A stretch of 64,000 nt of DNA from an uncultured Ignavibacteria bacterium (GCA_964563085.1 CAZLVS010000002.1:62-64061); one strand, 5' to 3'. Counted from the first letter of the stretch, positions 42,389 to 61,839 are shown. A program made the numbers and translations. The notes: generated by a model not told the origin, from the letters alone.

Positions 42389-44662
42389 TTATTTAAGCAG
42401 CGTCATCCGCTTGGTGATTACATTGTCGCCAGCGCTTAGCTTATAGAAATAAACTCCGCTGGAGAAGCTGGCAGCATCCCAGGTTACAGTATGCTGTCCG
42501 GCAACCTTATTGCCGTTCACCAGTGTAGCGACTCTCTGTCCCATCAAGTTGTACACTTCCAAACTTACTTCCCCGGCTTCCGGCAAGCTAAAGCTGATAT
42601 TGGTGGAAGCATTGAACGGATTAGGATAGTTGGTCTGCAATCCATACTCGGTAGGAATAATTTCGCTTCCGAAGAACTCGCCTTCGATCGACCATTCGGC
42701 GGCGCCGTCAGCGATCCTGGCTCCTGCCACCGTGAACGGGAAAGAGGCGCTGTCGCAGACCTCATCGGGGCGATCGCCGCAATATGCCATATAGGTGTAT
42801 GTACCCAAGGGCGCAAATCCCGGCACATTCTGCCACGTATGCGCAGTCATCGACTCGCCCGGGTCTAACGGGATATTATTGAACGCAAACTGCTGGAAGA
42901 AATCACCCAGGTAGATCACTCCGCCCCAGACGTCCGTGGTAATCGGGTCATCGGTAGGATTACCGATGTAGCCGGTTAAACCGAAGCGGCCGCCCGGTTC
43001 AACTATAACGGGGTCATCGTCGGGAGTCATATCAACATCGCAGCAGGGTCCGCATTCCAGACCGCAATAGCCGTACCAGGTTCCGCCGGGACCGTCGGTT
43101 CCGGTAAAGAGTTTTTCACAGGTTACCGACAGAGTCCATCCCCAGCTGCTCGACCAACCGTTAGGAATGTTGAAAGTCTCAACATAAGTGCCGTCAAACT
43201 CATAGACATGAACGTCACCGCCGTCTTCCCATGTGAACAGGTTACAGCCGTTGGTGGCGATGCAGAATTCGAATCCCCAACCGTTGGTGGTAAATCCATA
43301 CATGGTATCCACCAGCTCGCAGGTTTCGAAATCAATTACCCAGACTGTGCCTCCGCTATGCTCGTACATTAAATTAGCAGCGGGATCGTAACATACTTTA
43401 GCCTGATAATCATGGAATACTCCGCTGCAAACAAGGTTGTATGTGCCGGCTTCCGGATCTATCTGATAGAGGTCAGTTCCATAAATCTTCACGTAGAATT
43501 GACCGTCATTCGGGTTGAAGAAGATAGCCCTCATGTCCAGCGTCAAGCTGACCTGACCCAGACTATTGCCTTCCAGATCGAATTTCTCCACAGCGCCCAG
43601 ACTGCTGATGCCGCCATTGACGGAGTACATATACTCATCGTTACACGCTATGGACATCAAGGTGACGTCGAGGCTGTTTGTAAAGGTCATGCATTCTTCC
43701 GGAGTATAATCGAGTATATCGCTTACCTGCGATTCATTAGCCGGTGAGAGCGCATAACTCGGGGATGCCGCAGTATTCACCATAGCGGCTTCCCATCCAC
43801 CTTCAATCGCCCAGTTCTCGGCGCCGTTTCTAAAGGAACCCGCGGTTACCGTGAACTCAAACATAGCGGAATCGCAAGCCTCGGGTTTCTCCCCGGAAAA
43901 GGCGATATAGGTATAGGTACCGGAAGGGGCAAATACCGGTACGCTCTGATTAAGATGAGCGGATAATTCCTCTCCGGGATCAAGCGGTATGTTGCCGAAA
44001 TTCCAGAGCTGGAAAAAATCACCCAGGTAGATAACTCCCACCCATACATCTGTAACGATCGGATCGGGATTGGGATTGGCGATATAACCGGTCAATCCGA
44101 AAGTACCGCCGGGCGGAACCATCACGGGATCATCATCGGGAACCATATCCACATCGCTGCAGAGTGTTTCCTCATATTCGAAGTCATCGATGGTATAGAA
44201 ATTTCCGGAATTATGCATCAACACATAGTCTATGCCATCGGCATTAATTTCCAGAAAGTCGTTCTGTCCGTAGTTATCTGGTCCCGATATCGATGCTAAC
44301 AGATTGTCATCGGAATCATATCCTTCCAGGTAAAACATAGAACCGGTTCCCGCGGTATACCAAACGCCTACATGGTTGGTCGGATCTTCAAAGTCGACCC
44401 TGATAGTGTTATCCGAATCGGTAAAAAGCACCTGGTTTCCCGAATGCGGCGGGTAGCCGGTATTGTTATATCCATAGACAACAGATTCAAGGATTGTCGC
44501 ATCGGGACCGAAAAACAGTCCTTCATAAAAGTCGCCCAGGTTTTGATCGCCGCCGAAATACCAATAGGTTTCGGGTACGTCCTCAAGATCGAGAACGGTC
44601 AACGCGTTTACTGTTCCAAAGGCAAACAGAACAATACAGATAGTTGTTAAAACACTTTTCAT
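42389..44662 (-). CDS. large T9SS-secreted protein with two copies of the shared ~105-aa module, a central beta-propeller-like region and T9SS CTD
   Basis: Signal MKSVLTTICIVLFAFGTVNA. Module copies VDMVPDDDPVMVPPGGTFGLTGYIANP…DVWVGVIYLGDF…YTYIAFSGEKPE…FEFTV and VDMTPDDDPVIVEPGGRFGLTGYIGNP…DVWGGVIYLGDF…YTYMAYCGDRPD…FPFTV. CTD …NYPNPFNASTNISFSLPEAGEVSLEVYNLMGQRVATL…SGVYFYKLSAGDNVITKRMTLLK. Confidence 0.7.
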   Translation of the reverse strand: MKSVLTTICIVLFAFGTVNALTVLDLEDVPETYWYFGGDQNLGDFYEGLFFGPDATILESVVYGYNNTGYPPHSGNQVLFTDSDNTIRVDFEDPTNHVGVWYTAGTGSMFYLEGYDSDDNLLASISGPDNYGQNDFLEINADGIDYVLMHNSGNFYTIDDFEYEETLCSDVDMVPDDDPVMVPPGGTFGLTGYIANPNPDPIVTDVWVGVIYLGDFFQLWNFGNIPLDPGEELSAHLNQSVPVFAPSGTYTYIAFSGEKPEACDSAMFEFTVTAGSFRNGAENWAIEGGWEAAMVNTAASPSYALSPANESQVSDILDYTPEECMTFTNSLDVTLMSIACNDEYMYSVNGGISSLGAVEKFDLEGNSLGQVSLTLDMRAIFFNPNDGQFYVKIYGTDLYQIDPEAGTYNLVCSGVFHDYQAKVCYDPAANLMYEHSGGTVWVIDFETCELVDTMYGFTTNGWGFEFCIATNGCNLFTWEDGGDVHVYEFDGTYVETFNIPNGWSSSWGWTLSVTCEKLFTGTDGPGGTWYGYCGLECGPCCDVDMTPDDDPVIVEPGGRFGLTGYIGNPTDDPITTDVWGGVIYLGDFFQQFAFNNIPLDPGESMTAHTWQNVPGFAPLGTYTYMAYCGDRPDEVCDSASFPFTVAGARIADGAAEWSIEGEFFGSEIIPTEYGLQTNYPNPFNASTNISFSLPEAGEVSLEVYNLMGQRVATLVNGNKVAGQHTVTWDAASFSSGVYFYKLSAGDNVITKRMTLLK

Positions 44663-46626: not shown

Positions 46627-47400
46627 ATGGTTTGTAAATCTATTCTCGGGATCGCATTGGTACTATCGATATTCTCGATTAATCTCTCCGCCGAGCCGGT
46701 GGAGGTAAGTATGTATCCTCACGATTGGCCTCTGGAAGTTCCGATAGGGGATGTCTTTATTTATGACGGATATGTTTACAATAATTCAGGCGATCCCCTC
46801 GATTCAGTCGATGTGTGGACCATGGCGATTCGACGCAGCGACGACGAAATATTCGGGCCATTCAAGCAGCTCGAAAATCAGTATATTCCCAGACGTTCCA
46901 TACTCTTGGTGCGGCTGGTTCACCAATTGGTCCCAGCCAGCGAGCAAACGCACGTTGGGGTATATGACTATGTCGCCTATTGCGGCAACTACTCCGATGA
47001 AGTCGATTTGTGGGATGTTTGGGATTCGTACTCATTCGAAGTATCAGTGACTCATGCCGAAGATCAACATCAAAATCGCCAATGCTGGGAATGGAACAAT
47101 TATAGCTGGGAACATGGATATATCGTGGAACTGCAACCGGAGTTTCAGGGACTCTCAAACTATCCCAATCCCTTTAATGCTAAAACTACCATATCATTCG
47201 ATTTATTAGGTGATTCCCGGGTGAACCTCAGCGTTTACAATATCGCGGGACAGAAAATCGCCGAGCTAATTGATGGGACATTAAATTCCGGTACCCATAA
47301 CGTCATTTTTGATGCTGAAAACCTGACCAGCGGCGTCTATTTCTATAAACTTAGCACGGAATATGATCTTACAACCAAACGGATGATTTTGCTCCGATAA
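46627..47400 (+). CDS. minimal T9SS cargo: signal peptide + shared ~105-aa module (divergent) + T9SS CTD
   Basis: Module VSMYPHDWPLEVPIGDVFIYDGYVYNNSGDPLDSVDVWTMAI…YDYVAYCGNYSDEV…FEVSV. CTD …NYPNPFNAKTTISFDLLGDSRVNLSVYNIAGQKIAEL…SGVYFYKLSTEYDLTTKRMILLR. Confidence 0.65.
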   Translation: MVCKSILGIALVLSIFSINLSAEPVEVSMYPHDWPLEVPIGDVFIYDGYVYNNSGDPLDSVDVWTMAIRRSDDEIFGPFKQLENQYIPRRSILLVRLVHQLVPASEQTHVGVYDYVAYCGNYSDEVDLWDVWDSYSFEVSVTHAEDQHQNRQCWEWNNYSWEHGYIVELQPEFQGLSNYPNPFNAKTTISFDLLGDSRVNLSVYNIAGQKIAELIDGTLNSGTHNVIFDAENLTSGVYFYKLSTEYDLTTKRMILLR

Positions 47401-48440: not shown

Positions 48441-49286
48441 ATGGACAAACTGAAATCACAATTAATCGGAGTGATTTTAACTGTTCTCCCTATCTTGATC
48501 TTAGTTCCGCATGCAGCAGTGGCAAACGTGAATCTTTCCCCGCCGCAGCCGGATAATGATTACCCGTTGGAAGTGATTATTGAACGTGAAGATAGTCTAT
48601 TAGTCCGTGGTGTAGAGCAGTATATAGCTGATATCCGCATAAATAACACCACCGATGATTACCTTCAGTTCACGTTTCGCACCGAGGTTTATAGCGAAGT
48701 CACCGGCGCTACGCTGGGACCATATGTCGGTCCTTACGTGAGTGGCATACCTTCCGGCTGGAGCCTTTGCGGTCACGTGGAGCATCCTGTCGCAGACTGC
48801 TCCTACATAGGATTTTACCAGTATAGACTCATCGCCTATGTGGAAGAAGACACTCTGGGTTATGGCGAATCTCGCGTTTTCATTACAAACAGCGAAGCCA
48901 ATAACCATCTTCCTGACTGCAAAACCGTGTTCTTTCCCGGGATGTGGGAGTTTTACCTGGTGGATCCCGAAGGTAGGTATCACGGTTTAGATCATTGGAG
49001 CGAAATGGGTAATGGAGAGAACACTTCAACTATCCATCTATTTGCATCGCCGAATCCTTTTAACGCTACAACCAACATCACTTTCGAACTGGCGCAGAAG
49101 TCGGATGTAAAGCTGGAAATCTATAATATCCTGGGCAGGAAAGTTACCACGCTTGCAGAAGGCGTTTATAATGCGGGAACGTACAATATAAACTGGGATG
49201 CATCAGAACAACCGTCAGGCGTATATTTTTATCGCCTGAGTACGCCCAACGAGGTTAAAACCCAGAGAACAACTTTACTGAAATAG
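48441..49286 (+). CDS. T9SS-secreted protein with unknown N-domain + T9SS CTD (no shared module)
   Basis: Signal/anchor MDKLKSQLIGVILTVLPILILVPHAAVA. CTD …ASPNPFNATTNITFELAQKSDVKLEIYNILGRKVTTL…SGVYFYRLSTPNEVKTQRTTLLK. Confidence 0.65.
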   Translation: MDKLKSQLIGVILTVLPILILVPHAAVANVNLSPPQPDNDYPLEVIIEREDSLLVRGVEQYIADIRINNTTDDYLQFTFRTEVYSEVTGATLGPYVGPYVSGIPSGWSLCGHVEHPVADCSYIGFYQYRLIAYVEEDTLGYGESRVFITNSEANNHLPDCKTVFFPGMWEFYLVDPEGRYHGLDHWSEMGNGENTSTIHLFASPNPFNATTNITFELAQKSDVKLEIYNILGRKVTTLAEGVYNAGTYNINWDASEQPSGVYFYRLSTPNEVKTQRTTLLK

Positions 49287-49476: not shown

Positions 49477-51123
49477 ATGATATTTAATTACAGATTGCTT
49501 GGCTATCATCGCATCACTCTTGTGGTTTCGCTTACAGTTATTTTGACCATATTTATTTCATCCGATTCTACATCAAGGGGATTTTCACACGAAAGTGATT
49601 TCTGTAATAACTGGGAAGTATACAAAAGAGATCAGATAAAGAAATATGGGAGATTGTACGATCCATGCTATAATGGAGACTGTGATATCCCCAGAAATCG
49701 TAATGAATCAATACCGGAACCCGATGACCCATATTTGTATATTCGCCTGTATTTCAATATCTTCTGTGAAGATGACGGCAGCAACTGCGGCACAACCGAG
49801 TCAATACTCGACCTGCAGATAAGGGAACTCAATAGCGCATTCTCTCCCTCAAGAATCCAGTTTGTTTATGATCATACCTTCATAAACTCAACGGAGTATA
49901 GATATAATCCAGATGTGGAACAGATGAAAAGTATTTATGCCCGGGCTCCCGAATATCAGCTTAATGTATACATTACTGAGGGCGCCGGTTCTTTTGGAAC
50001 ATATCCCTGGGACGACGTAAGATTACCGCTTTCCGATCAGGGCGGTATAGTTATACGTCACGATCGTATTTATCCGGCTCCATATTACGATAATACACTG
50101 GCACATGAAATCGGTCACTGTCTTGGATTATGGCATACATTCCACGGTGTATTTGAAGTACCGGAGTGCGGAGACTGTTATGAAATGGCAAATGGGGAAG
50201 ATGCCGATGTTACCGGAGATCTCTGTTCGGATACGCCGCCGACTCCACGAAACTACGATTGCCGAGATCCAGGCGGTGTCGATCCCTGCTGCGATACTCC
50301 ATGGGGGGAAACGTCTCCTCAAAATTATATGAGCTACAGCGCTCTGGGAGGAACTCCCTGCTGGACCGAGTTTACGCCGCAGCAATGGGGACGGATGCAT
50401 TGCTGGATTGATGCCGTTCTTTCCGGCTGGATTCAATCCGCCGGCTCACAATTGTCTATTGCAATGATCCCGGATGAAAATCCGATTGAAGTTATGCCGG
50501 GCGAGCAGTTCGGGCTTACAGGAATTTTGACAAACAACGGAGACAGCAGCGAAACAGCGGATGTCTGGATAATGCTGATTGCGCCGGAAATAGGGGAACA
50601 TGGTCCCCTACATACTTTCCATGACATCTCCCTACAACCGGGGCAAACAATCAATGCGCACCTTAATCAGCAGGTGCCGATAAACGCCCCATTAGGCATA
50701 TATGATTACATTGCAAACGCAGGAGATTTTCCCGATACAATTTACGATGCTGATACATTTCAATTCACAGTATTTCAGAATTCCGAACAAGGAGATTTCA
50801 GCGATCATAATCGGAGGTGGGTTCTGAGGGGAGGTTTCGACCGGAGTGTATCAAACCTAAAGAGCTTACAAAATGTCAGAAACTATCCTAATCCATTTAA
50901 TTCTTTTACCGAGATATCATTCCAGCTTATTGATGATTCCTATATCGAAATAACTGTTTTTGATATCCTGGGAAGACGAGTTGCAGCGCTTGCCAAAGGT
51001 AACTATAACGCTGGTGCGCACAATATCCGTTGGGATGCGTCAAACCAGCCGTCAGGTATATATTTCTATCGACTGAGTACACCCAATGAGGCTGAAACCA
51101 ATAGAATCACATTAATTAGATAA
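49477..51123 (+). CDS. T9SS-secreted M43-family (pappalysin/ulilysin-like) zinc metalloprotease + shared ~105-aa module + T9SS CTD
   Basis: Extended zinc motif HEIGHCLGLWHTFHG (HExxHxxGxxH, as in ulilysin HEIGHWLGLYHTF). Cys-rich catalytic domain. Module LSIAMIPDENPIEVMPGEQFGLTGILTNN…DVWIMLIAPEIGEHGP…YDYIANAGDFPDTI…FQFTV. CTD …NYPNPFNSFTEISFQLIDDSYIEITVFDILGRRVAAL…SGIYFYRLSTPNEAETNRITLIR. Confidence 0.7.
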   Translation: MIFNYRLLGYHRITLVVSLTVILTIFISSDSTSRGFSHESDFCNNWEVYKRDQIKKYGRLYDPCYNGDCDIPRNRNESIPEPDDPYLYIRLYFNIFCEDDGSNCGTTESILDLQIRELNSAFSPSRIQFVYDHTFINSTEYRYNPDVEQMKSIYARAPEYQLNVYITEGAGSFGTYPWDDVRLPLSDQGGIVIRHDRIYPAPYYDNTLAHEIGHCLGLWHTFHGVFEVPECGDCYEMANGEDADVTGDLCSDTPPTPRNYDCRDPGGVDPCCDTPWGETSPQNYMSYSALGGTPCWTEFTPQQWGRMHCWIDAVLSGWIQSAGSQLSIAMIPDENPIEVMPGEQFGLTGILTNNGDSSETADVWIMLIAPEIGEHGPLHTFHDISLQPGQTINAHLNQQVPINAPLGIYDYIANAGDFPDTIYDADTFQFTVFQNSEQGDFSDHNRRWVLRGGFDRSVSNLKSLQNVRNYPNPFNSFTEISFQLIDDSYIEITVFDILGRRVAALAKGNYNAGAHNIRWDASNQPSGIYFYRLSTPNEAETNRITLIR

Positions 51124-51318: not shown

Positions 51319-52188
51319 TTATTGGCCCCACCAGCAATCGCGGTAAACATCCGGGGATGATTTCGGCAATGGAGGAGGTTGGCAATTCACACAGATAGAA
51401 CTGGTTCTGCTTCCCACCTTGATTTTTTCGATGATACTTCCGCATCGAAGACATTCCTGACCGGCTTTGCCGTAAATCTTATGCTCGATCTGAAAATAAC
51501 CTGCATCGCCATTTTCACTGACAAAATCCCGTATGGAGGAGCCTCCTGCTTTTATTGCTGATTTTAGAATCTTTTGGATAGAAGCATGCAGCTTTTCGGC
51601 ATACTCCCGCTTGATATCGCAACTAATGGTTCTGGGATGGATACCGGCGTCGTAGAGGGACTCATCAACATAAATATTACCGAGTCCGGCGATAATAGAC
51701 TGATCCAATAATAGACTCTTAATCATTTTTTTGTGGCTGAAAAGGATATCGACGAATTCTTCTGCGGAAATCTTTAATGGGTCTGCTCCCAGCGAATCGA
51801 TAATACTCTCTATTTTGCCGCCGTCATCGTCGATCACCATTCTCCCGAATCTTCGGATATCATTAAAAACCAAATAGCGACCATTTTCCTTGAATTCTAT
51901 TATCACATGCGAATGCTTGGGTAGCTCGCTACCCGAAGAAACAACCAGCAGCTTGCCAGTCATTCCCAGATGCGTAAGCATTCTTTCACCTTCGGAAAAT
52001 TCCGTTAGAATATACTTGCCTTTTCTGGATATATGATTGACTCGTTTACCTTTTAACCTGTGCATTTCCCTTTGATTACCACCATTGATAATCTCCGGAA
52101 AATTAATTCCGATCCTTGCAATCGTCAATCCTTCGACATTTTCTCTCAACCCCCGAACGATCACCTCAACTTCCGGTAGTTCTGGCAT
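51319..52188 (-). CDS. mutM: formamidopyrimidine-DNA glycosylase (Fpg/MutM)
   Basis: N-terminal MPELPEVE (catalytic Pro2 and Glu), H2TH region, C-terminal zinc finger CLRCGSIIEKIKVGSRTSSICVNCQ. Start set at the second Met of the tool ORF. Confidence 0.85.
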   Translation of the reverse strand: MPELPEVEVIVRGLRENVEGLTIARIGINFPEIINGGNQREMHRLKGKRVNHISRKGKYILTEFSEGERMLTHLGMTGKLLVVSSGSELPKHSHVIIEFKENGRYLVFNDIRRFGRMVIDDDGGKIESIIDSLGADPLKISAEEFVDILFSHKKMIKSLLLDQSIIAGLGNIYVDESLYDAGIHPRTISCDIKREYAEKLHASIQKILKSAIKAGGSSIRDFVSENGDAGYFQIEHKIYGKAGQECLRCGSIIEKIKVGSRTSSICVNCQPPPLPKSSPDVYRDCWWGQ

Positions 52189-52309
52189 CATGCACCTCTA
52201 TTGTTCTTTTGCTGAATGTTTGAAAATAAAACATCTGTTTTTCTAACCCTTTAATATTATGATAATAAAAATTGTTCCTGATAAGGAGAATTTTAGGATT
52301 TCGTAAAAA

Positions 52310-52954
52310 TTATCCTATAATTCCCGTCCAGTCTTTCATGAGAAAGATCACCCTGCCTATAAGCAGAGAAACGCGAGCCATAACGGTAAATCCGAAGGTG
52401 GAACCGAAACCTATCATAAGAATCCAGATTCCTGCGGTCGCCATTCCGCCAAAGACACCTTTGTGTTCTTTGGAAAAGAAGAAATATACTAAGCCGCAAG
52501 CGACGCCTACAGCTATAAACAAGCTGCCTAAATCCTGCCAAGAACTGAAAGTTATCGGCACAATGGTAGCCTGTAATTGTCTTATGATAAAGTTCTGGAG
52601 AGCCAACGGTATCGCTGCTCCAGTCCCGATTCCCCATATCACCGCAATCGGGTATCGAGCTATATATGCCCATTTAGGGGAAAATCGGCTAAAAAGCAAT
52701 ATACCTATCAATGCAGGAAAAATCAAGAGAAAAATTCCCAGAGTCCCGGGCACCATGTGCCACTCTCCCCTGCTCAGAGGATCAATGAAAATAGGAATGA
52801 ACGTCACTCTTATATAGATAACCAAACCGTAACCGGCGGAAATACCGACCGATAGATGTTCAGCGAATTTATAAAGCAGATTATCCTTATATAGAAAGGA
52901 AAAGACGCATAAGGTAAGAATCGCAGCCAGCCATACGCCGGGATCGGTACTCAT
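52310..52954 (-). CDS. polytopic membrane protein of unknown family (gene 4 of a 4-gene overlapping cassette)
   Basis: About 6 hydrophobic helices. Start overlaps the stop of the upstream gene by 4 nt (ATGA). No known motif recognised. Confidence 0.5.
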   Translation of the reverse strand: MSTDPGVWLAAILTLCVFSFLYKDNLLYKFAEHLSVGISAGYGLVIYIRVTFIPIFIDPLSRGEWHMVPGTLGIFLLIFPALIGILLFSRFSPKWAYIARYPIAVIWGIGTGAAIPLALQNFIIRQLQATIVPITFSSWQDLGSLFIAVGVACGLVYFFFSKEHKGVFGGMATAGIWILMIGFGSTFGFTVMARVSLLIGRVIFLMKDWTGIIG

Positions 52955-53781
52955 AGCCGGGTACCTTTCTTCTTACGCGTAACGAAATAACCGATATTAC
53001 CGATTATGATAAACAAAACGATTACGATATGAGCAAATGATTGAATGCTCATACCCATGGTAGCCATATCCTTATAATTCACCAAATCTTCATATTCCGC
53101 AGCCCCTTTTAGACCTCCGATAATACCGATAACCTGTCCCGAATTAAGATACTGGTAATAGTCGGCCGCCATAACCGCTGTAACGCCGATAGCGAATGGG
53201 AAACCGTAACGTTCCCTTCCCCAGATTATCCACTGGTCTACGCCCGAGGTAGCGTTAATGGTTAACACAAGGTCGATGTCACCATAATTCTTTATCCCCT
53301 GCATCATGGGTAGACCATCCAACGGAGTCCCGTAAAGATCGGTGGGAAAACTCTGCCGGAAATTCTGCCCCATCGACATTATCACAACCGCCGGATAGGG
53401 TCTGTAACCGAGAAAAATGTAGTCTTTTCCATACTCCGCATTCATCTTCTCAGCCATATAAAGTATTTCCTGCTCAATTAGTGTTACGCCGGTGTGATAG
53501 AACAGTCCAGCTATTATATTAATATCCTTGCTCCAGCAATGACGAAGGATGGCATACAACATCGGTTCGAGTTCCGCCATAGTGTCCGGCGCGTATTCGC
53601 AAGGTAAAAGAAGGGTGGAACCGGGAGGTAATTCATCAACAAGGTCATATACATTTTGCACTTCTTTGGTCACCGTAATAGGCAAATCAACCCTCAGAAG
53701 CAGCGGCAATATTACCGACAGCATGATAATCAGGAATATTATACGGCGGTCGATTTTGGTGAGTCGTTCAAAGAAATCCAT
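52951..53781 (-). CDS. bitopic membrane protein with large extracytoplasmic domain, unknown family (gene 3 of cassette)
   Basis: N-terminal TM (IIFLIIMLSVILPLLL), ~190-aa soluble domain, C-terminal TM + KKKGTRL tail. Translationally coupled to its neighbours. Confidence 0.5.
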   Translation of the reverse strand: MDFFERLTKIDRRIIFLIIMLSVILPLLLRVDLPITVTKEVQNVYDLVDELPPGSTLLLPCEYAPDTMAELEPMLYAILRHCWSKDINIIAGLFYHTGVTLIEQEILYMAEKMNAEYGKDYIFLGYRPYPAVVIMSMGQNFRQSFPTDLYGTPLDGLPMMQGIKNYGDIDLVLTINATSGVDQWIIWGRERYGFPFAIGVTAVMAADYYQYLNSGQVIGIIGGLKGAAEYEDLVNYKDMATMGMSIQSFAHIVIVLFIIIGNIGYFVTRKKKGTRL

Positions 53782-53782
53782 A

Positions 53783-54403
53783 TCAGTCGGACCCCATATA
53801 GGAACGTTCTATACCCAGCATCACTTTCAGCGCCGTGGCGGCGGCGCCCATCCCGACTCCCATAAAAATAGCCCGCTTTGCGGCTACGTTTGGATAATTT
53901 ATCAATATATCAGCCAGTTTTGGAAATAAACCGAATGAGATTATCGAACCAATAGGCACTCTGCCCATCATTACGATTATTGCCGCCAAAAGTAAGATGG
54001 TGGCTATTACGGTTCTTGCCCTGAAAGCGCGGTATGCGGCAGATGCGATGAAAAAAGCGAGCAATGCAAACAGCGTCGCCGAGATGGGCGCTAAAACATT
54101 GTTATACAGCCATACGAAAACGGGACCGCTTTCAGTGTCTATCAATCCTACCGTCGTCATTCCGAAAAGCGAGACCAGAAGTACTACCGAAATACCCCAG
54201 TTCTCCTTCTTGAAATTTATTTTATCGTAATGTACCAGGATGATACTGAGTATTCCCATCGAAAGGGCGAAAATACCGATTATCTGGAGCCAGATGTTAC
54301 TCACCTCGTACATTATCTCGAAACTCCGATGAGGGATAAAATACTGCAGCGTCAGAATGAAAGCGCAGACAAAAGTTATGGCAATAGGCAGTTGTCGTTT
54401 CAT
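53783..54403 (-). CDS. polytopic membrane protein of unknown family (gene 2 of cassette)
   Basis: Five or six TM helices. Start/stop abut the flanking genes (1-nt gaps). Confidence 0.5.
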   Translation of the reverse strand: MKRQLPIAITFVCAFILTLQYFIPHRSFEIMYEVSNIWLQIIGIFALSMGILSIILVHYDKINFKKENWGISVVLLVSLFGMTTVGLIDTESGPVFVWLYNNVLAPISATLFALLAFFIASAAYRAFRARTVIATILLLAAIIVMMGRVPIGSIISFGLFPKLADILINYPNVAAKRAIFMGVGMGAAATALKVMLGIERSYMGSD

Positions 54404-54404
54404 A

Positions 54405-55634
54405 TCAATTCACCGTTACATCCAATAGTCTGATGAAGAAATCGCTCCCGAAAACTGAGGCGGCAATCAATCCCGCAATGAGGAAAATGACAATTGCCGC
54501 TTTACCTATATCCTGAGCTTTGAGTATGCCCAGTTTTAAAGGATCTTGAGAGAGATAAGCCGATGCGGCATAGAGCTCTTCCCCGATAAGCGTATAGTCG
54601 CAGGCGGCGACGAAAAACGGGATCTGAATCGCTTCATCGGTTCCCCCTATCTGAATAGCGCCGGCTTCGTACCCGGTTTCGGCCAGCATTAATGACTCGG
54701 CGTAGAATTTGCCCAGGAAGAAATTGGTTGCCGGTTTATCGCGCAGCATGATTCCATTGACAGCGGCGGCATAGGGGAACTGCTCCTGGGTGATAAAAAA
54801 CACTTCTTTCTCATTATATAAATCAGGTCTGCCGGCGTCGAGATACGCAGACCTGACCACCTCCTGCGCCACGATCATCGTTTCCGGATAATAGCAGGGA
54901 ACGATAACGCGTGATTGGTATTCGGCGGATTGCTTGGCAACACGTTCCAGAATCGTCATTGCGGCTATAGTCGCCACATCGGAAGCCACACCCAGTCCCG
55001 GAACCACCAAAATCGGTTTTCCCATCTCGGTAGCTCTCCCGATAGCGTCATCTATGGCATTGATACCGGATAGAGGTCGGATGTACAATTCGCGACCATG
55101 TTTTGCGATGCGCAGAACAGTCAGAACCACCAGACAAAAAAGCAAAGCTACCACAAAAGTGGCGGTCTTGCCGGAATGGAACCACTGTCCGCTCGATTGA
55201 ACCGGCCCTAAGATGTTCGATGATACTTCCGAGTCCAGAATATCAATTTTATAGTAGTAATCGACACCATCAAAAACGCCATTTGGGTCTTCGCCGGTTC
55301 CAAACTCATTTCTGTCAATGAACTTGTAGTCTCCGATAGAGGCGAATGCTACCGAATCGAAAGGACCGGATTCGGAACGGGAACGCATAATTCTGTAACC
55401 GATTCCCGGAAATGAAGAATCTACCACTGCCGGTTCCCATACTACGGTGATACTCCTTCCATGATCATTTTTGGTGTCGTAAGCGTCGTAGATTACCGGC
55501 GGTTTAATTACAAATGAAGTGTCGGGAATATCGGTTTCCCGAGCTAAACCATTTGTAAACAGGAAGGCTGAAATTAAGATGGTAAAAAGGAATAAGGTTG
55601 TCACCGAATGATGTCGATCCTGCGAAGTATTCAT
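54405..55634 (-). CDS. membrane protein with periplasmic fibronectin-III-like domain and large second domain, unknown family (gene 1 of cassette)
   Basis: N-terminal anchor. FN3-like segment ITVVWEPAVVDSS…GYRIMRSRSESGPFDSV…YYYKIDILD. Then a TM helix, ~230-aa domain and a C-terminal TM. Confidence 0.5.
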   Translation of the reverse strand: MNTSQDRHHSVTTLFLFTILISAFLFTNGLARETDIPDTSFVIKPPVIYDAYDTKNDHGRSITVVWEPAVVDSSFPGIGYRIMRSRSESGPFDSVAFASIGDYKFIDRNEFGTGEDPNGVFDGVDYYYKIDILDSEVSSNILGPVQSSGQWFHSGKTATFVVALLFCLVVLTVLRIAKHGRELYIRPLSGINAIDDAIGRATEMGKPILVVPGLGVASDVATIAAMTILERVAKQSAEYQSRVIVPCYYPETMIVAQEVVRSAYLDAGRPDLYNEKEVFFITQEQFPYAAAVNGIMLRDKPATNFFLGKFYAESLMLAETGYEAGAIQIGGTDEAIQIPFFVAACDYTLIGEELYAASAYLSQDPLKLGILKAQDIGKAAIVIFLIAGLIAASVFGSDFFIRLLDVTVN

Positions 55635-55709
55635 AAGCGCAAATAAGCAAATCCGCTATTTACGGTCAATTAAAAAAATCGCCGATAAACTGCTGCAGTA
55701 GAGAAGCAA

Positions 55710-58700
55710 TTATGCGGTGGCGGAATCTAAAACCCTTTTGATAGGTTCGGCCGACCGGAATGAATCCGCCATTTCGCGAGGTTTGATTTTAGAAGCGGTT
55801 TCTTCAATTAGTTCCCGTGCGGAATTTATCTCCTGCGTACCGAGCTTCAGGAATTCTCTGTTAGTGGAGTCCGAGGTTAAAAGCGACCCGATTATATATC
55901 GGCTTTCCCATTCCAGTTGCCTGTAGCCGCCCTTGGCGGCGCGCTCAAGCGCAATCTGCAGCATTTCACGCGCTTTTGATTTCCGATTGATAGACTGATA
56001 GAATTTACCCAACGAAAGGAAGGCATAAGCGCCATACTCGCTGAAATCATCTTCAGCTAAACTCTCCAGTTTTTCGGCATAGGCGGCGGCATTTTGGTCT
56101 TTACGATACGAGAATGTATCCATCAATGCGCTCAATGCTTTGATGGTATATATCCTGGCTCCGATGCGCTCTCCGATTTCCGTGGCTTCCAAAGCGTCAC
56201 GATGCGCATCTTCAATATCACCCAGCGCCAATTTGTCAAAAGCGTAACCGGCGAGCAGTTCGGTGATCAGCTCTTCATCGCCCAGAGATTTCGCTAACTC
56301 CATCGCTTTGCCGTGGTTCTCAAGCGCCAGCCTCGGTTGATACATTTGAAGATAAAGATCCCCGAGATTCGAATATGTATATGCCGTTCCTGCAGTATCG
56401 CCAATGCGCTCTAAAACCTTCAGCGCCTCGGTAAACGCCTCCTCAGCATCGGAGTAATTAGCCAGATTCTTGGAGACATAGCCGATATTGCCCAGGCAGT
56501 AGCTTCTGTTGCGACGGTCGCCGACCCGTTCAAAAGCGTCGGCGGCTTTTCGGATATTCTCCATCGCCAAATCTATCTTGCCAGTATCCAGATAGATAAG
56601 CCCCAGGTTATTAAGTATCTTGGCTTCGCCCTCGATATCGGAAAGCTTGCTGCGTATCTCCAGAGCCTGCATGTAAATCGAGAGCGCTTCATCCAGCTCT
56701 CCCAAAGCCCAGAGAGTAATACCCAGGCTATTTAAGCTGCTCGCTATCTCGTTATCGTCATCTATCTCCCGATAGATTTCGGCCGCTATCCTGAATTTTT
56801 CGGCCGCCGTTTTGAAATCTCCCTTGCGCCTGGCTACCTCCGCAATGGAGAAAACACTGGATGCCTTACCGGCGAGATTACTGGACTTCTCCGATAACCG
56901 CAGTCCGGTCTGAGCCGATCTTAGAGCCGAACCGTATTCCCCTTTAAGCCAGCGCGATTCGGCAATGAAGTTGAGGATTATCGGGACCTGCTGATTCATC
57001 TTCCAGCGTTTCAATTTTCCTTTGAGTTGTTCGAACGCCTGCTCGGCGTCATCATAGGAGCCGGTTCTAAGATAAACATTAGCTTTAGCTTTAATAACAT
57101 GGCAGACTTTATCGCTATCGATGTAATTGGGCAATCTCCCGGGCCTGTTGAACATCTTCTCGGCGCTGCTATAAAAACGTATCGCTTCCCCGTTGGCGAA
57201 AATCGATACCGCTTTATCCCCCGCTTCAATTAAGTACTTGAAGGCTTTGTCTTTGCGGCTGCTGTGGGAATAATGATGCGCCAACAGCTCGAGATGAGAA
57301 TGGAGATTATCCCTGTATTTATTCTCCAGCCTTTCGCCAACTCTTCCATGGAGCTTTTCACGCTCTGAGAAGGATTGACATTGATAAGCAACTTCCTGCG
57401 TCATGATATGCTTGAATATATATCCCGGATTAGCCCCCTGGTTATCGATAGGGGTTAAATCCAGCGACGCCAGTTTACTCAGATGGTCGATAAGCGCATC
57501 CCTGGATACTTTATAGGGGAAGATACTCTCGAGCAGGTTAAGATCGAAAGAGCGTCCTATTACCGCCGCGGTCTTTATTACATCTTTGGATGCTTCAGGC
57601 AGCCGATCTATACGCGAAAGCACCAGGCTGTTGATATTATCCGGCAGTTCCAGATTTTTCATATCCCCTACAAAACTTAAATAGCCGGTGTCTTCATCAG
57701 TCTGAATGAAGCCATTATCTATAAGCGAACGGATTATCTCGCCTGCGTAGAATGGGTTCCCCTGCGCCCTTTCAACAACGATCTTCTGAACTTCTTCCGG
57801 GATATCAGGGATATTCAACATAGATACAATCAGCTCAGTAGATTCCTCCGGCGGAAGCGCTTCAAGATTAATCAGGGAGGATTGTCTATATGCAACCGAG
57901 TTCTCAATCTTGTTTTCGGGCCTGGTTACCGAAACTATCATCAGCCCCTTAATCGGCTCTTCCTCGAAGATATAATTCAGGAATTCGAAGGAGGTTTCAT
58001 CTATCCAGTGAATATCCTCCAGTATTACATAATACTGCCGGTTATTCGCCTGATATCTCAATATGGCATGAAGCAAATCGAATAATCTCTGGTGACGGAT
58101 TCTGGTATCCAGGTTCGTTGTCTCCGCTGTTTCCGGTAATCCAAGTTCTAAAATATCATTCAGTGTCGGTTCCCATCCGGAAAGCGATGCGCCGGAACTT
58201 ATCTCGTGGAGAAGCTCCCTATCGAAATCTTTGCCTTTCACGTGCAATATTTTCTCGAAAATCGGCTTCCAGGGTAAAAATGGAATGGCGCTGCCGTAGG
58301 ATTGACATGCCCCGATGAATCCGGGAATGCCTTTTTGCTCCGCCAACTCCAAAAATCTTGCGGTCAATCGAGACTTGCCGATACCGGCTTCCCCCTGAAT
58401 TACTACCGACCGGAATTCTCCCCGGAGAGTCTGCTCGATATTCTCGATTAACTTCTGAGTTTCCTTCTTTCTGCCAACCATCGGACCGGAATGCGCCGAT
58501 AGCGCCTCGTTTACCAGGTCCGTTTCTTCGTCGCTCTCATCTGATACCGTATACACGGGAATAGGATTGGATTTACCCTTCACGGTAACTTCTCCGGCGG
58601 AATCAACTTTCAGGTTGTCCAGTTTGGATTTCACCTTTTCTCCAAGAAGAATGCTGTTGGTTTCGGCTTTGGACATCAAGCGCGCCGCCAGGTTAACATC

Positions 58701-59840
58701 ATCCCCCATCACCGTATATTCCCGACGTTCAATGGCGCCGACATCCCCGCAAAATGCTCTTCCCGCGTTAATGCCGATTTTATGCTGTATATCCCAACCG
58801 GTTTCTGCGTTTATCTCATTTAATCCTTTCTGCATACTCAGCGCCGCCCGTAGTGCCCGGGCTTCGTCATCCTGATGCGCTTTAACCGCGCCGAAAACCG
58901 CCAGTATTTTATCTCCCTTACTATAGCAATCGACGCGGGTGATGACGCCGCCCATCGATGAGATCGACTCGTTAACCATCCGGTAATACTTATCCAGGCG
59001 CTCTTTCAATTCCTCGGGCGCCTCCAGAAAACTATTCCCGGGTATAGTATAATTGACGAACATTATTGTGATACGTCTGTGTTCGGCGGATATCCAGCCA
59101 TCGCGCCCGGTTGAGAGCTTATCATGCAAACCGGATGGTAGGAATTTGCTGAGCATATCGATATTGCAGTCGGAAGGGATGAGTTGGGCGATCTGATTGT
59201 CGATAGCCCGGAATTCGGATTCGGGTTCAATAATAATATACTTATTATCATTTCTGCGCTGCTCGATATAGTCCTCAACCATCCCGCAGAACTCTCGCGT
59301 GGCTCCAACCTGTTCGCCTTCCGCGAAATCAGCGGCATTGAAGACCTCGTTTAGGGCATCTCCGGTCACAAGATGCTCTAATTTCGTTTCGGGATCGCCG
59401 ATCTCCGCGGAGAAAAACTTCCCGTAATGCAACCCGGTATGAAGCGTGAGGTCGAATTTCCCCGCGGAGGTTTTCACGGTTTTGTTTGCCATTGCCCAAT
59501 CGTTTATTTTGAATGCGGCTCTGGCTGCCGCCTCGGGTCTTTCGAAATACACCAAGGTCGCATCGCCGCCGAATTTCAATATATCTCCGCCGTTATCCAG
59601 AATCACTGATATCATTCCGCTTAGGTGTCTGTTAATAACCTGCGTGAGTTCCTCGGAACCGCTTTTTCCGGTAGTAGCCAATTTCTCCGAGATCGCCGTA
59701 AATCCCGAGATATCGGCAAACATCAGGGCGCCTTCCAGAATATCGATCACGGAAGAGAAATCAGCGCTTCGCGGTGCGTTGATGATGAGTCTCGGAAGAT
59801 AGGGTTTAATCTTGTTTAAGGCTTCCGGAATATCTTTCAT
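55710..59840 (-). CDS. tandem class III adenylate/guanylate cyclase - STAND (AAA_16) NTPase - TPR repeat protein
   Basis: Two CHD cyclase domains (…FADISGFTAISEKL…GDATLVYF…; …ITIMFVNYTIPGNSF…KILAVFGAVKAHQDDEARA…). P-loop VVIQGEAGIGKSRL. A long array of TPR-like helices in the C-terminal 600 aa. Confidence 0.8.
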   Translation of the reverse strand: MKDIPEALNKIKPYLPRLIINAPRSADFSSVIDILEGALMFADISGFTAISEKLATTGKSGSEELTQVINRHLSGMISVILDNGGDILKFGGDATLVYFERPEAAARAAFKINDWAMANKTVKTSAGKFDLTLHTGLHYGKFFSAEIGDPETKLEHLVTGDALNEVFNAADFAEGEQVGATREFCGMVEDYIEQRRNDNKYIIIEPESEFRAIDNQIAQLIPSDCNIDMLSKFLPSGLHDKLSTGRDGWISAEHRRITIMFVNYTIPGNSFLEAPEELKERLDKYYRMVNESISSMGGVITRVDCYSKGDKILAVFGAVKAHQDDEARALRAALSMQKGLNEINAETGWDIQHKIGINAGRAFCGDVGAIERREYTVMGDDVNLAARLMSKAETNSILLGEKVKSKLDNLKVDSAGEVTVKGKSNPIPVYTVSDESDEETDLVNEALSAHSGPMVGRKKETQKLIENIEQTLRGEFRSVVIQGEAGIGKSRLTARFLELAEQKGIPGFIGACQSYGSAIPFLPWKPIFEKILHVKGKDFDRELLHEISSGASLSGWEPTLNDILELGLPETAETTNLDTRIRHQRLFDLLHAILRYQANNRQYYVILEDIHWIDETSFEFLNYIFEEEPIKGLMIVSVTRPENKIENSVAYRQSSLINLEALPPEESTELIVSMLNIPDIPEEVQKIVVERAQGNPFYAGEIIRSLIDNGFIQTDEDTGYLSFVGDMKNLELPDNINSLVLSRIDRLPEASKDVIKTAAVIGRSFDLNLLESIFPYKVSRDALIDHLSKLASLDLTPIDNQGANPGYIFKHIMTQEVAYQCQSFSEREKLHGRVGERLENKYRDNLHSHLELLAHHYSHSSRKDKAFKYLIEAGDKAVSIFANGEAIRFYSSAEKMFNRPGRLPNYIDSDKVCHVIKAKANVYLRTGSYDDAEQAFEQLKGKLKRWKMNQQVPIILNFIAESRWLKGEYGSALRSAQTGLRLSEKSSNLAGKASSVFSIAEVARRKGDFKTAAEKFRIAAEIYREIDDDNEIASSLNSLGITLWALGELDEALSIYMQALEIRSKLSDIEGEAKILNNLGLIYLDTGKIDLAMENIRKAADAFERVGDRRNRSYCLGNIGYVSKNLANYSDAEEAFTEALKVLERIGDTAGTAYTYSNLGDLYLQMYQPRLALENHGKAMELAKSLGDEELITELLAGYAFDKLALGDIEDAHRDALEATEIGERIGARIYTIKALSALMDTFSYRKDQNAAAYAEKLESLAEDDFSEYGAYAFLSLGKFYQSINRKSKAREMLQIALERAAKGGYRQLEWESRYIIGSLLTSDSTNREFLKLGTQEINSARELIEETASKIKPREMADSFRSAEPIKRVLDSATA

Positions 59841-59847
59841 GACAATT

Positions 59848-60195
59848 TTAACCCACGAGTATATATCTAAATATTACCAGCAGAAAAATATGCAGTGATT
59901 GATCGACATAATAAAGCTGGGTCGGACCGGATATCCTGCTTTTGACATAATCTTGAGCCCAGTGAGTAGCGAAAAGAATAGCCGCCAGGCAAATAAGCAA
60001 TGTCGCCGGAGGATGATTACTAAATCCCTCCAGTATCCAGAACAGTGTGAACGCTAATGCGATAGTGATTGTATATGTGAAGACATGGAGGGTCAAAGTC
60101 CCCACAGAGCTTTTCTTCATAGCCGCCATTCGGTCGCTTTGCAGACCATAATCCCCCACGTAATGCCCGATTAAAAGAAATATTATCAGATCCAT
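59848..60195 (-). CDS. small 3-4 TM membrane protein (DUF3307-like)
   Basis: IGHYVGDYGLQSD…THWAQDY conserved His/Asp pattern. 8-nt gap to the cyclase gene and 19 nt to the upstream kinase gene (operon-like). Confidence 0.45.
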   Translation of the reverse strand: MDLIIFLLIGHYVGDYGLQSDRMAAMKKSSVGTLTLHVFTYTITIALAFTLFWILEGFSNHPPATLLICLAAILFATHWAQDYVKSRISGPTQLYYVDQSLHIFLLVIFRYILVG

Positions 60196-60213
60196 CGTCG
60201 ATGTTCAGGTGCT

Positions 60214-61839
60214 TCAGTTGGTTTTCTGTAACTCTTTTTCGGATTCCATTGACGTCGTATCACCGGCGGTTCTTGATATCGGGAGTTTTATTATGAACTC
60301 GGTTCCCACTCCCTTTTCGCTCTCGACCTTCACGGTTCCCTTGTGCACCTTGGTTACATTGTTAATCGTGATCAGACCGAAACCATGACCGCTGGATTTG
60401 GTTGTAAAGCTCTGTTTGAATGCCCGTTCCTTTTCATCCGGAGACATTCCCGGACCGTTATCACTCACACAGAATTCAATGCAATTTTCCTGATCAAGAA
60501 GTCTGGTAATGACGTCAATCTTGCCATCATTTCGATTGGCGTTATTCAAGGCGTCTGCCGCATTGTTAAGCAGATTATACAGAATTTGCTGCAATCCCGC
60601 CGGGTCGGCATCGATTGTTTCGATCCTCTCATCGAAATCGGATGTAATCTGAATCCTACGGAACCGTTTCTGCGGCCTCAGGAATGCCAATTCCGCTTCT
60701 AAGAATTTATTTAGCTCGACATCCGTGAACTCGTATTGCGGTTGAGCAAAACTCATCAGTCCATTGGTAAACATGGTCATTCTCTCTATCGCCGTGCGCA
60801 TGGCGTTCATTTTCTTTTCAAGCGCTTCGTTTTTTACATCCTCCAGATCGAAAGTCATCAGTTCGAGATTTCCGCTCAGCACCGATATGTAGTTATTTAA
60901 CTCGTGGGCAACCTCTCCCGCCATCTGTCCACGCGCCGCCATGCGATCCAGGGTCTGCGCCTGTCTCTCCAATTCCTTTGACTCCGTAATGTCGCGGCTC
61001 AAGTATAGTATGCCTATAAGTTTATCATTAGCCCCGATTATATTACAGGCAGTTAGCTCCTGGATAAATTCATCACCGTTCTTTCTTACGCCAAGAACCT
61101 CGCCATGGTATGTTTCATTTTTCTTTAGATGATTGTCGATTGAAACTTTGGTTTCGGTCGGGCAGTTGGGAGAGATGAGTGCATCCATGTTTTTCCCGCG
61201 TATTTCATCATAGGAATATCCGTAGATATCGCGAGCTACTTGATTAAAGATATAAATCACTCCATTCTTATCCGTCACCACTACGATATCCGGAGAAACT
61301 GATATGATTCTCTCCAGAAATTTTTTGGTTCGGTTCAACCGACGGTTTGAATCTTCCAGTTCCTTGCTTATTTTCTCCAGAGATACATTTTTCTCTTTTA
61401 AATCCTTTATAGCCTGTATATCGGATTGGCGCAGCCTGGAAGCTAAAACTCCCATTATTTCGAATGCGACAATAGGGACTTCATATAACAGCGAAATAAA
61501 TGCCGCCTTGGAAAGCTCCAATATATGGCTTTCGGTGGAAACGCGAGCGGTGGCGAATCGAGGGCTGTTTTCCAACAGCGCCATTTCGCCGAAGAAATCT
61601 CCGGAACGCCGCATGGCTAAGGTCACCTTTTCCCTGCCTTCGTCATCCTCCTTGATTATCTCCACACAGCCTTTTTTGATAATATAAAAGGTATCTCCGA
61701 AGCTGTTTTCGCGGAACAGGATATCACCGTCGCGATATGTCTTTTCCTCGATAAAACTCTCTAATTTCTCAAGACTTTCATCATCGAACTTCGAAAATAG
61801 CGGAACTAATTTTAATACTTCCTTGGTAGGTCGGTCCAT
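60214..61839 (-). CDS. cyclic-nucleotide-binding domain / PAS / histidine kinase (HisKA + HATPase_c) sensor protein
   Basis: cNMP-binding fold (…GDILFRENSFGDTFYIIKKGCVEI…FFGEMALLENSPRFATARV…), PAS segment, H-box AGEVAHELNNYISVLSGNLELM, N/G1/G2 boxes (…NLLNNAADA…DNGPGM…GHGFGL…). Confidence 0.8.
   Translation of the reverse strand: MDRPTKEVLKLVPLFSKFDDESLEKLESFIEEKTYRDGDILFRENSFGDTFYIIKKGCVEIIKEDDEGREKVTLAMRRSGDFFGEMALLENSPRFATARVSTESHILELSKAAFISLLYEVPIVAFEIMGVLASRLRQSDIQAIKDLKEKNVSLEKISKELEDSNRRLNRTKKFLERIISVSPDIVVVTDKNGVIYIFNQVARDIYGYSYDEIRGKNMDALISPNCPTETKVSIDNHLKKNETYHGEVLGVRKNGDEFIQELTACNIIGANDKLIGILYLSRDITESKELERQAQTLDRMAARGQMAGEVAHELNNYISVLSGNLELMTFDLEDVKNEALEKKMNAMRTAIERMTMFTNGLMSFAQPQYEFTDVELNKFLEAELAFLRPQKRFRRIQITSDFDERIETIDADPAGLQQILYNLLNNAADALNNANRNDGKIDVITRLLDQENCIEFCVSDNGPGMSPDEKERAFKQSFTTKSSGHGFGLITINNVTKVHKGTVKVESEKGVGTEFIIKLPISRTAGDTTSMESEKELQKTN

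Follow-up and report, generated by a model that had tools for sequence, protein, structure and literature searches.

The stretch analysed here, called the window, is 64,000 nucleotides (nt) of DNA from an uncultured Ignavibacteria bacterium, and its positions 52310-61839 hold seven co-oriented open reading frames (ORFs) on the minus strand. These encode a histidine kinase (HK), a small DUF3307 protein, an adenylyl cyclase and four membrane proteins, here named M1, M2, M3 and M4. Comparison with related loci separates the seven genes into two modules, a signalling trio (HK, DUF3307, cyclase) and a membrane-protein cassette (M1-M4). The full reading favoured here, with somewhat better than even confidence, is that the two modules are autonomous and are neighbours only in this lineage, and that the cassette encodes an obligate hetero-oligomeric inner-membrane complex. 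The features of the interval, together with the gene that follows it, are listed below.

60214-61839, minus strand: HK, soluble PAS histidine kinase of 541 amino acids (aa), first gene of the signalling trio (Pfam)
59848-60195, minus strand: DUF3307, small polytopic membrane protein of 115 aa (Pfam PF11750, 1.4e-15)
55710-59840, minus strand: sAC-type adenylyl cyclase, C1-C2-STAND-TPR, 1376 aa (Pfam, alignment to ADCY10)
55635-55709, minus strand: inter-module gap of 75 nt with a promoter-like motif (sequence)
54405-55634, minus strand: M1, FN3 plus DUF6754, 409 aa (Pfam, AlphaFold2, Foldseek)
53783-54403, minus strand: M2, about six transmembrane (TM) helices, 206 aa, no known family
52951-53781, minus strand: M3, TM helix, Rossmann-like domain and TM helix, 276 aa (AlphaFold2), no known family
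52310-52954, minus strand: M4, about six TM helices, 214 aa, start overlapping the M3 stop by 4 nt, no known family
51319-52191, minus strand: fpg, formamidopyrimidine-DNA glycosylase (NCBIfam PRK01103, 4e-86), outside the interval; a neighbour, not a functional part

The first-pass annotation of the window had described the interval as eight genes. Seven were found, and the eighth co-oriented gene, fpg, lies outside. Its gene coordinates and its domain calls for the kinase and the cyclase were confirmed by the ORFs and by Pfam, whereas its placing of the kinase directly next to the cyclase overlooked the DUF3307 gene that intervenes. From HK to M4 the intergenic distances are 18, 7, 75, 1, 1 and -4 nt; the last three agree with that annotation and the first three replace its values of 19, 8 and 76.

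Synteny separates the trio from the cassette

A scan of a genome collection with M1 as the query gave 14 loci and was followed by tblastn with all eight window proteins; the cassette survey came to 19 loci in total. By tblastn, the cyclase, DUF3307 and kinase genes stand beside a cassette only in the window and in locus L001, which is 91% identical to the window and comes from essentially the same organism. Three Logan assemblies of that organism also keep the cyclase-cassette arrangement; the underlying sequencing runs are SRR7048218, SRR7048225 and SRR7048228. Three Zixibacteria loci with 63-71% M1 identity (L002, L003 and L018) retain the cassette and the downstream fpg gene with different genes upstream, namely further cassettes, a PMT_2 glycosyltransferase, FG-GAP proteins or a methyltransferase. 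Cassettes in other phyla are likewise without an adjoining cyclase or kinase.

The trio has its own record of conservation. Kinase orthologs with the same architecture, a cyclic-nucleotide-binding (CNB) domain followed by PAS and kinase domains, are found across Zixibacteria, and the order HK, DUF3307, cyclase-STAND-TPR is kept with tiny gaps or overlaps in all three Zixibacteria loci examined (L028, L029 and L030), where HK identity to the window protein is 69% (P0242), 63% (P0245) and 42% (P0284). The genes that follow the trio there are a polyprenyl synthase or MGMT-like gene, unrelated to the cassette, and no DUF6754 gene lies within 9 kb of the trio in these three loci. A metagenome scan with the kinase as the query returned distant domain matches only. 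In one metagenome-assembled genome (MAG), Bin_366, the trio (L028) and a cassette (L003) occur on different contigs. The trio is therefore kept without the cassette and the cassette without the trio, and each is conserved independently.

The first-pass annotation had proposed that the interval may encode one cAMP-controlled envelope complex, and had named neighbourhood conservation as a check, with lost synteny in relatives as refuting it. That check went against it: relatives at 63-71% identity keep the cassette without the cyclase or the kinase, and the synteny is lost beyond the 91%-identical L001.

Conservation and distribution of the cassette

The order M1, M2, M3, M4 holds in all 31-32 cassettes of the 19 loci; the gaps have medians of 8, 3 and 4 nt, and the totals are 32 M1, 31 M2, 31 M3 and 32 M4 genes. 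Since the same order and spacing recur throughout these cassettes, the tight spacing in the window is not due to chance, and the earlier impression that the membrane proteins resemble complex subunits is strengthened by this co-conservation. Because the order is fixed, the gene counts are equal, the gaps are tight and the proteins are not paralogs of one another (paralogy was rejected on mutual comparison), M1-M4 probably form one obligate hetero-oligomeric inner-membrane complex. Tandem arrays of two or three cassettes are common among the loci. The only departure seen from a 1:1:1:1 ratio is in a Cloacimonadota locus (L004 9983-12595), where two tandem M1 genes precede a single M2-M3-M4.

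The loci come from Zixibacteria, Cloacimonadota, Poribacteria, Armatimonadia, Planctomycetota and Latescibacteria, and the source names of homologs add Eisenbacteria, Schekmanbacteria, the "FCB group" and WOR-3. Taken together, loci and named homologs cover at least nine phyla, and all sources seen are metagenomic. Every named homolog is labelled "hypothetical", "FN3 domain-containing" or "DUF6754 domain-containing". The M1 family includes at least 7991 clusters at 90% identity (E<=1e-5, out of 8000 candidates scored). For M3, clustered at 50% identity, 4662 representatives match at E<=1e-3 and 3016 at E<=1e-10. In a neighbour-joining tree of M3, the copies from Zixibacteria-like genomes fall into at least three old paralog classes, and the window copy is in the class adjacent to fpg. 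The fpg gene itself follows the cassette in L001-L003, L018 and L031 and precedes it by two genes in L012, an Armatimonadia MAG; this is probably a conserved neighbourhood without a functional link.

No recurrent accessory gene was found beside the cassettes, and the neighbours vary by lineage. A soluble family of about 375 aa, with a weak Biotin_lipoyl-like match at its N-terminus, occurs at L012 8346-9488, L014 8817-9929 and L024 2197-3312. In the Armatimonadia MAG and in a Latescibacteria MAG it immediately precedes the cassette, and the window lacks it; in L024, where no cassette accompanies it, the next gene downstream encodes a small stand-alone cNMP-binding protein. In two Zixibacteria, cassettes are separated by an ORF of about 510 aa, at L002 8373-9899 (PMT_2, GT-C) and at L003 4502-6046. 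In L032 (6652-7977) a Wza-like Poly_export gene is directly upstream of a single cassette, with Wzy_C and GNVR genes nearby. Envelope-glycan genes beside cassettes are occasional and inconsistent across lineages.

Anatomy of the cassette proteins

M1 consists of a signal peptide or anchor (residues 13-31), an FN3 domain (about 42-145), a TM helix (154-178), an alpha/beta DUF6754 domain and a C-terminal TM helix (365-395). The DUF6754 model (PF20539) matches residues 149-395 with E 2.4e-111 and 371 bits against a cutoff of 27, spanning profile positions 3-249 of 257. This Pfam family, which M1 thus matches end to end, is without an assigned function, and Pfam omits the three partner proteins; a literature search found no paper mentioning DUF6754 or PF20539. 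The first-pass annotation had assigned an FN3-like periplasmic domain to one of the membrane proteins, and the predicted fold of M1 agrees. Its AlphaFold2 (AF2) model has a mean predicted local distance difference test score (pLDDT) of 70.6, with the FN3 sandwich above 90, and all 50 Foldseek matches listed for this domain are FN3, 11 of them at E<=1e-3, with target TM-scores up to 0.68. There is also a weak profile match to titin FN3. In some relatives the FN3 domain is divergent or absent, as in L012 (a divergent FN3-like N-terminus) and L014 (a short N-terminus).

Conservation in M1 is concentrated in DUF6754. The motifs GRATEMGKP (199-207) and GGTDE (330-334) are near-invariant, and across the family they belong to the segments RPLxGIxAxDxAIGRATEMGxP and IQIxGTDExxQxPFFxxxxDYxLxGEELxAxxAYL. 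In the AF2 monomer these near-invariant segments, residues 200-215 and 301-349, have pLDDT below 50. Their being unplaced in the monomer model therefore suggests folding that depends on a partner.

M2 carries a conserved charged motif on a predicted cytoplasmic loop (FFIASAAYRAFRAR; YRAFRAR) and a conserved GIERSY at its C-terminus; by positive-inside counts, the side on which its C-terminal end lies is ambiguous. M4 has the motifs SFLYKDNxxYKFAEH and YFFFSKEHKG on predicted cytoplasmic loops and a Gly-rich helix, MIGFGxxFGxTVMAR. No internal repeats were detected in M2 or M4. M3 has a TM helix (12-28), an extracytoplasmic six-strand Rossmann-like domain and a further TM helix (239-274) with conserved H251 and N262. 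Its AF2 model has a pLDDT of 90.8 and matches, by Foldseek against the PDB, generic GT-B halves and Rossmann folds (best E about 1e-3, TM-score about 0.3).

Positive-inside counts over the family alignments place FN3 outside and DUF6754 inside, and place the M3 termini inside and the M3 domain outside. The cassette proteins accordingly have a conserved cytoplasmic face and a variable outer face. In relatives of M3 the outer domain is interrupted by large insertions, at the same two sites. One of them (P0387) contains Ig-like repeats that together span about 550 aa, with CARDB matched by one repeat; another (P0497) has inserted HEAT_2/PBS-lyase repeats; helical inserts are seen in others (among P0430, P0450 and P0496), and in P0435 the whole domain is tandemly duplicated.

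Searches for known relatives agree with the first-pass view that the four proteins lie outside the known transporter and secretion families, ABC-2 permeases included. M2, M3 and M4 have no Pfam or NCBIfam match at E<=0.1, none of the cassette proteins has a match in PADLOC or PHROGs, and a Pfam search at E<=5 over 20-47 members per family gave scattered chance matches, none of them consistent. PDB sequence profiles, run for the four families and for DUF6754 alone, gave weak FN3 matches and a chance TrwL match (E 0.23). Structure models cover M1 and M3, and the no-family verdict for M2 and M4 rests on sequence searches; a distant structural relative is still conceivable. One candidate for DUF6754, domain III of the NAD(P) transhydrogenase subunit PntB, was suggested by a motif resemblance (PGLGVAS, GGTDExxQIP) and was rejected, as hhalign against E. 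coli PntB gave a probability of 0.1%.

Possible functions of the cassette

In the proposed arrangement, the polytopic M2 and M4 would form a membrane core and their charged cytoplasmic loops would dock the DUF6754 domain of M1, which is the probable ligand-binding or catalytic centre. The Rossmann-like domain of M3 and the FN3 domain of M1 would form a more variable outer cap. With slightly less than even confidence, M1-M4 can be regarded as a previously unrecognised class of four-subunit inner-membrane machine, outside the characterised transporter, secretion and biosynthesis families. That reading also takes in a DUF6754 domain docked on two new polytopic subunits, a spread over thousands of clusters and the frequent presence of three ancient tandem paralogs. 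What the machine does could only be guessed at: that it moves an envelope component outward or assembles it, as opposed to uptake, is a tentative suggestion held with low confidence, and both the direction of transport and the substrate are speculation.

Several observations weigh against the favoured reading of the cassette. No homolog with an established function was found for the cassette. The neighbouring genes are inconsistent, including aroB/aroK, PPDK, the PMT_2 glycosyltransferase and, in one locus, the Wza-like gene. Furthermore, no riboswitch or other RNA element was found upstream of cassettes in 14 loci and the window, a null result that also bears on uptake.

GldF/GldG, MacB/FtsX-type proteins and BcsA/BcsB offer an architectural likeness to M3, in that they too have a large outer alpha/beta domain on membrane helices and are encoded beside polytopic subunits. 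BcsB, for example, combines flavodoxin-like with carbohydrate-binding/Ig-like modules, which serves as an analogy only. In contrast to these systems, the cassette shows no sequence match to them and has no consistently linked ATPase or glycosyltransferase.

The cassette could alternatively be a new secondary uptake transporter, in which M3 would act as a tethered substrate-binding module, M2 and M4 as the permease, and the tandem paralogs would serve different substrates. Two subunits of about six TM helices with Gly-rich helices and conserved charges would suit such a role, as would the two or three diverged tandem copies per genome, the old paralog classes and the housekeeping-type neighbour genes; periplasmic-binding-protein folds (RbsB, a sugar substrate-binding protein) also appear among the weak Foldseek matches of M3. 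However, those matches have probabilities of 0.25-0.44 and TM-scores below 0.2, and M3 is single-lobed rather than two-lobed. Conservation is strongest on the cytoplasmic side and not in the outer domain, which accepts large inserts; M2 and M4 are without detectable internal repeats or any transporter family match even at E<=5, and no riboswitch was found. Uptake is accordingly judged unlikely.

Quite unlikely, in our estimate, is a structural or receptor-like envelope complex, that is, a scaffold or an adhesion or signalling platform with variable outer domains and a signalling DUF6754. The outer domains are indeed variable and of adhesion type (FN3, CARDB, HEAT), and no ATPase or outer-membrane partner is consistently linked. 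Yet the FN3 domain sits about 8 residues from the membrane helix, a poor geometry for adhesion, and a highly conserved polytopic pair with near-invariant cytoplasmic motifs looks more like catalysis or transport.

A putative promoter of the cassette's own

In the 75-nt gap ahead of M1, the window has TTGACC (55669-55664), a spacer of 17 nt, TTATTT (55646-55641) and then 6 nt before the M1 ATG at 55634. A TTGAC box followed some 16-17 nt on by an A/T-rich hexamer aligns upstream of M1 in the window, L001, L018, L002 and L003, the first box being TTGCC in L003, and the motif is conserved despite the differing upstream genes of these loci. The -10-like box lies 6-9 nt before the M1 ATG in all five, which implies leaderless or near-leaderless translation of M1. 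Judged from this alignment, the motif is a putative promoter of the cassette, whose mRNA would be leaderless or nearly so.

These data bear on the view that all seven genes are one system, in which cAMP from the cyclase is sensed by the kinase and this controls an M1-M4 envelope complex. In its favour are the shared orientation, a cyclase-M1 distance of only 75 nt with no terminator-like site, and the retention of the arrangement in L001 and the three Logan assemblies. Against it, the adjacency is confined to one lineage at 91% identity or more, more distant relatives and other phyla have the cassette alone, the trio occurs alone, and M1 has its conserved promoter-like motif. In addition, no cassette protein contains a cNMP-binding domain by Pfam, the FN3-less M1 variants included. 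A single system is very unlikely on this evidence.

The favoured reading of two autonomous modules has difficulties of its own here. No terminator-like site was found in the 75-nt gap, and read-through from the cyclase gene into the cassette may therefore occur in this organism. Owing to the weak -10 box of the window copy, moreover, the M1 motif was not flagged by a simple consensus promoter scan. In this one lineage, the cassette may have been captured downstream of the sAC-like cyclase operon. Elsewhere, some three-cassette tandems are flanked by unrelated housekeeping genes.

The signalling trio

The cyclase has its C1 domain at about residues 32-175, C2 at 253-426, an AAA_16 STAND NTPase at 454-636 with the Walker A motif GEAGIGKS (483-490), and a TPR array at about 909-1240. 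Pfam reports Guanylate_cyc in two stretches, AAA_16 (7e-21), NB-ARC (5e-4) and TPR_12 (1.5e-32). The first 430 residues align to both catalytic domains of human ADCY10 (4clf/4oya) with E 1.5e-29, and the alignment reaches C1 (36-184) and C2 (258-419) of sAC. In C1 the metal-binding aspartates D43 and D93 (D47 and D99 in sAC) and K89 (K95) are kept, and in C2 the substrate residues K308 (K334 in sAC) and T376 and the transition-state residues N382 and R386, the sAC numbers being counted along 4clf in the alignment. The protein has, as read from these residues, one pseudo-heterodimeric purine-type active site with cAMP as its predicted product. At the bicarbonate site, Lys95 of sAC is kept as K89 and the position of Arg176 is Phe167, which makes bicarbonate regulation of the cyclase doubtful.

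Two known kinds of protein resemble the cyclase. Full-length sAC combines C1-C2 with a predicted STAND P-loop domain that is functionally unexplained (PMC12802110). Like mammalian sAC (ADCY10), the window protein has both catalytic domains in one chain and a STAND NTPase after them; unlike it, the window protein is bacterial, has a long canonical TPR array and is encoded together with DUF3307 and a CNB kinase in an operon-like trio. Bacterial cyclase-ATPase-TPR proteins (mycobacterial Rv0386-type; the TIGR03903 TOMM kinase/cyclase fusion) similarly combine a cyclase with AAA_16/STAND and TPR, whereas the window cyclase has two cyclase domains rather than one and no kinase or helix-turn-helix output domain. 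Its match to TIGR03903 is a partial one, at 243 bits against a model cutoff of 705.75.

HK has a cNMP-binding domain (33-118), a PAS domain (174-288), a HisKA-like H-box VAHELNN (310-316) and HATPase_c (412-521), with Pfam matches to cNMP_binding (6e-23), PAS_9 and HATPase_c (1.3e-23). The HisKA match, at 22.2 bits against a Pfam cutoff of 26.9, is below threshold and counts against the favoured reading, but the H-box itself is present. In the CNB domain the Gly-Glu pair and the Arg of the phosphate-binding cassette are kept in the motif FGEMALLENSPRFATA (83-98); the residue after R94 is Phe, in place of Ser or Thr. The first-pass annotation had noted that the kinase lacks a response regulator in the window, and phmmer with two receiver queries likewise matched no receiver domain or response regulator in the whole 64 kb. 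A single-domain regulator gene is near the trio in one of the three orthologous loci (L029).

DUF3307 lies between kinase and cyclase in every trio examined, the window and L028-L030. It also matches phrog_2470 in PHROGs ('membrane protein', a phage 'moron' membrane-protein family) at 2e-19. It has an internal H-x3-D-Y repeat, GHYVGDY (10-16) and THWAQDY (77-83), in or near membrane helices; its start differs between gene callers, so that its length is 103 or 115 aa. The literature found on DUF3307 was one irrelevant phage paper.

The conserved HK-DUF3307-cyclase unit fits the producer-sensor pair that was proposed on first inspection, its order being kept in the three Zixibacteria loci. In such a pair, the STAND/TPR part would gate cAMP synthesis on some ligand or partner, cAMP would bind the sensor domain of the kinase, and the kinase would phosphorylate a response regulator whose gene lies elsewhere; DUF3307 may hold kinase and cyclase at the membrane or couple them there.

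A Pycsar-like anti-phage role, with a STAND-gated cyclase making a cyclic nucleotide on infection and a CNB effector responding, seems extremely improbable: PADLOC PycC cyclase matches (5.7e-21), matches to the CNB region of Pycsar effectors (2e-8), the phage family of DUF3307 and the fact that STAND NTPases are common phage sensors speak for it. The PADLOC matches, however, reflect homology general to class III cyclases and CNB domains. Among sequences of known structure the closest relative is sAC, whose purine-type Lys/Thr pair the cyclase keeps, and histidine kinases are not known as abortive-infection effectors. The trio, at 42-69% identity, is retained across Zixibacteria in the manner of a core signalling unit passed on vertically.

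Surroundings of the interval

The interval is flanked in the window by an NTPase_1 gene on the other strand and by several proteins with type IX secretion sorting domains. The latter form a cluster of Por_Secre_tail (type IX secretion C-terminal sorting) proteins at 42389-44662, 46627-47400, 48441-49286, 49477-51123 and beyond 62.8 kb, one of them with a Peptidase_M43-like region. On contig L015, from the same organism, a PETase/chlorophyllase-like hydrolase with a sorting domain lies just beyond the kinase.

Conclusions

A gene train in a single genome can mislead as to function, and here two unrelated conserved modules merely abut. The signalling trio belongs to known kinds, although its C1-C2-STAND-TPR cyclase with a CNB kinase offers a tractable bacterial counterpart of full-length mammalian sAC (PMC12802110). 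What is new is the cassette only. Only one of its four proteins has a family model, and that one is a DUF; even so, the four are strictly conserved together in many uncultured phyla and are often triplicated. A machine so widespread and conserved probably has a basic role in the envelope or in transport, in lineages without a cultured model, and defining it would annotate thousands of "hypothetical" genes.

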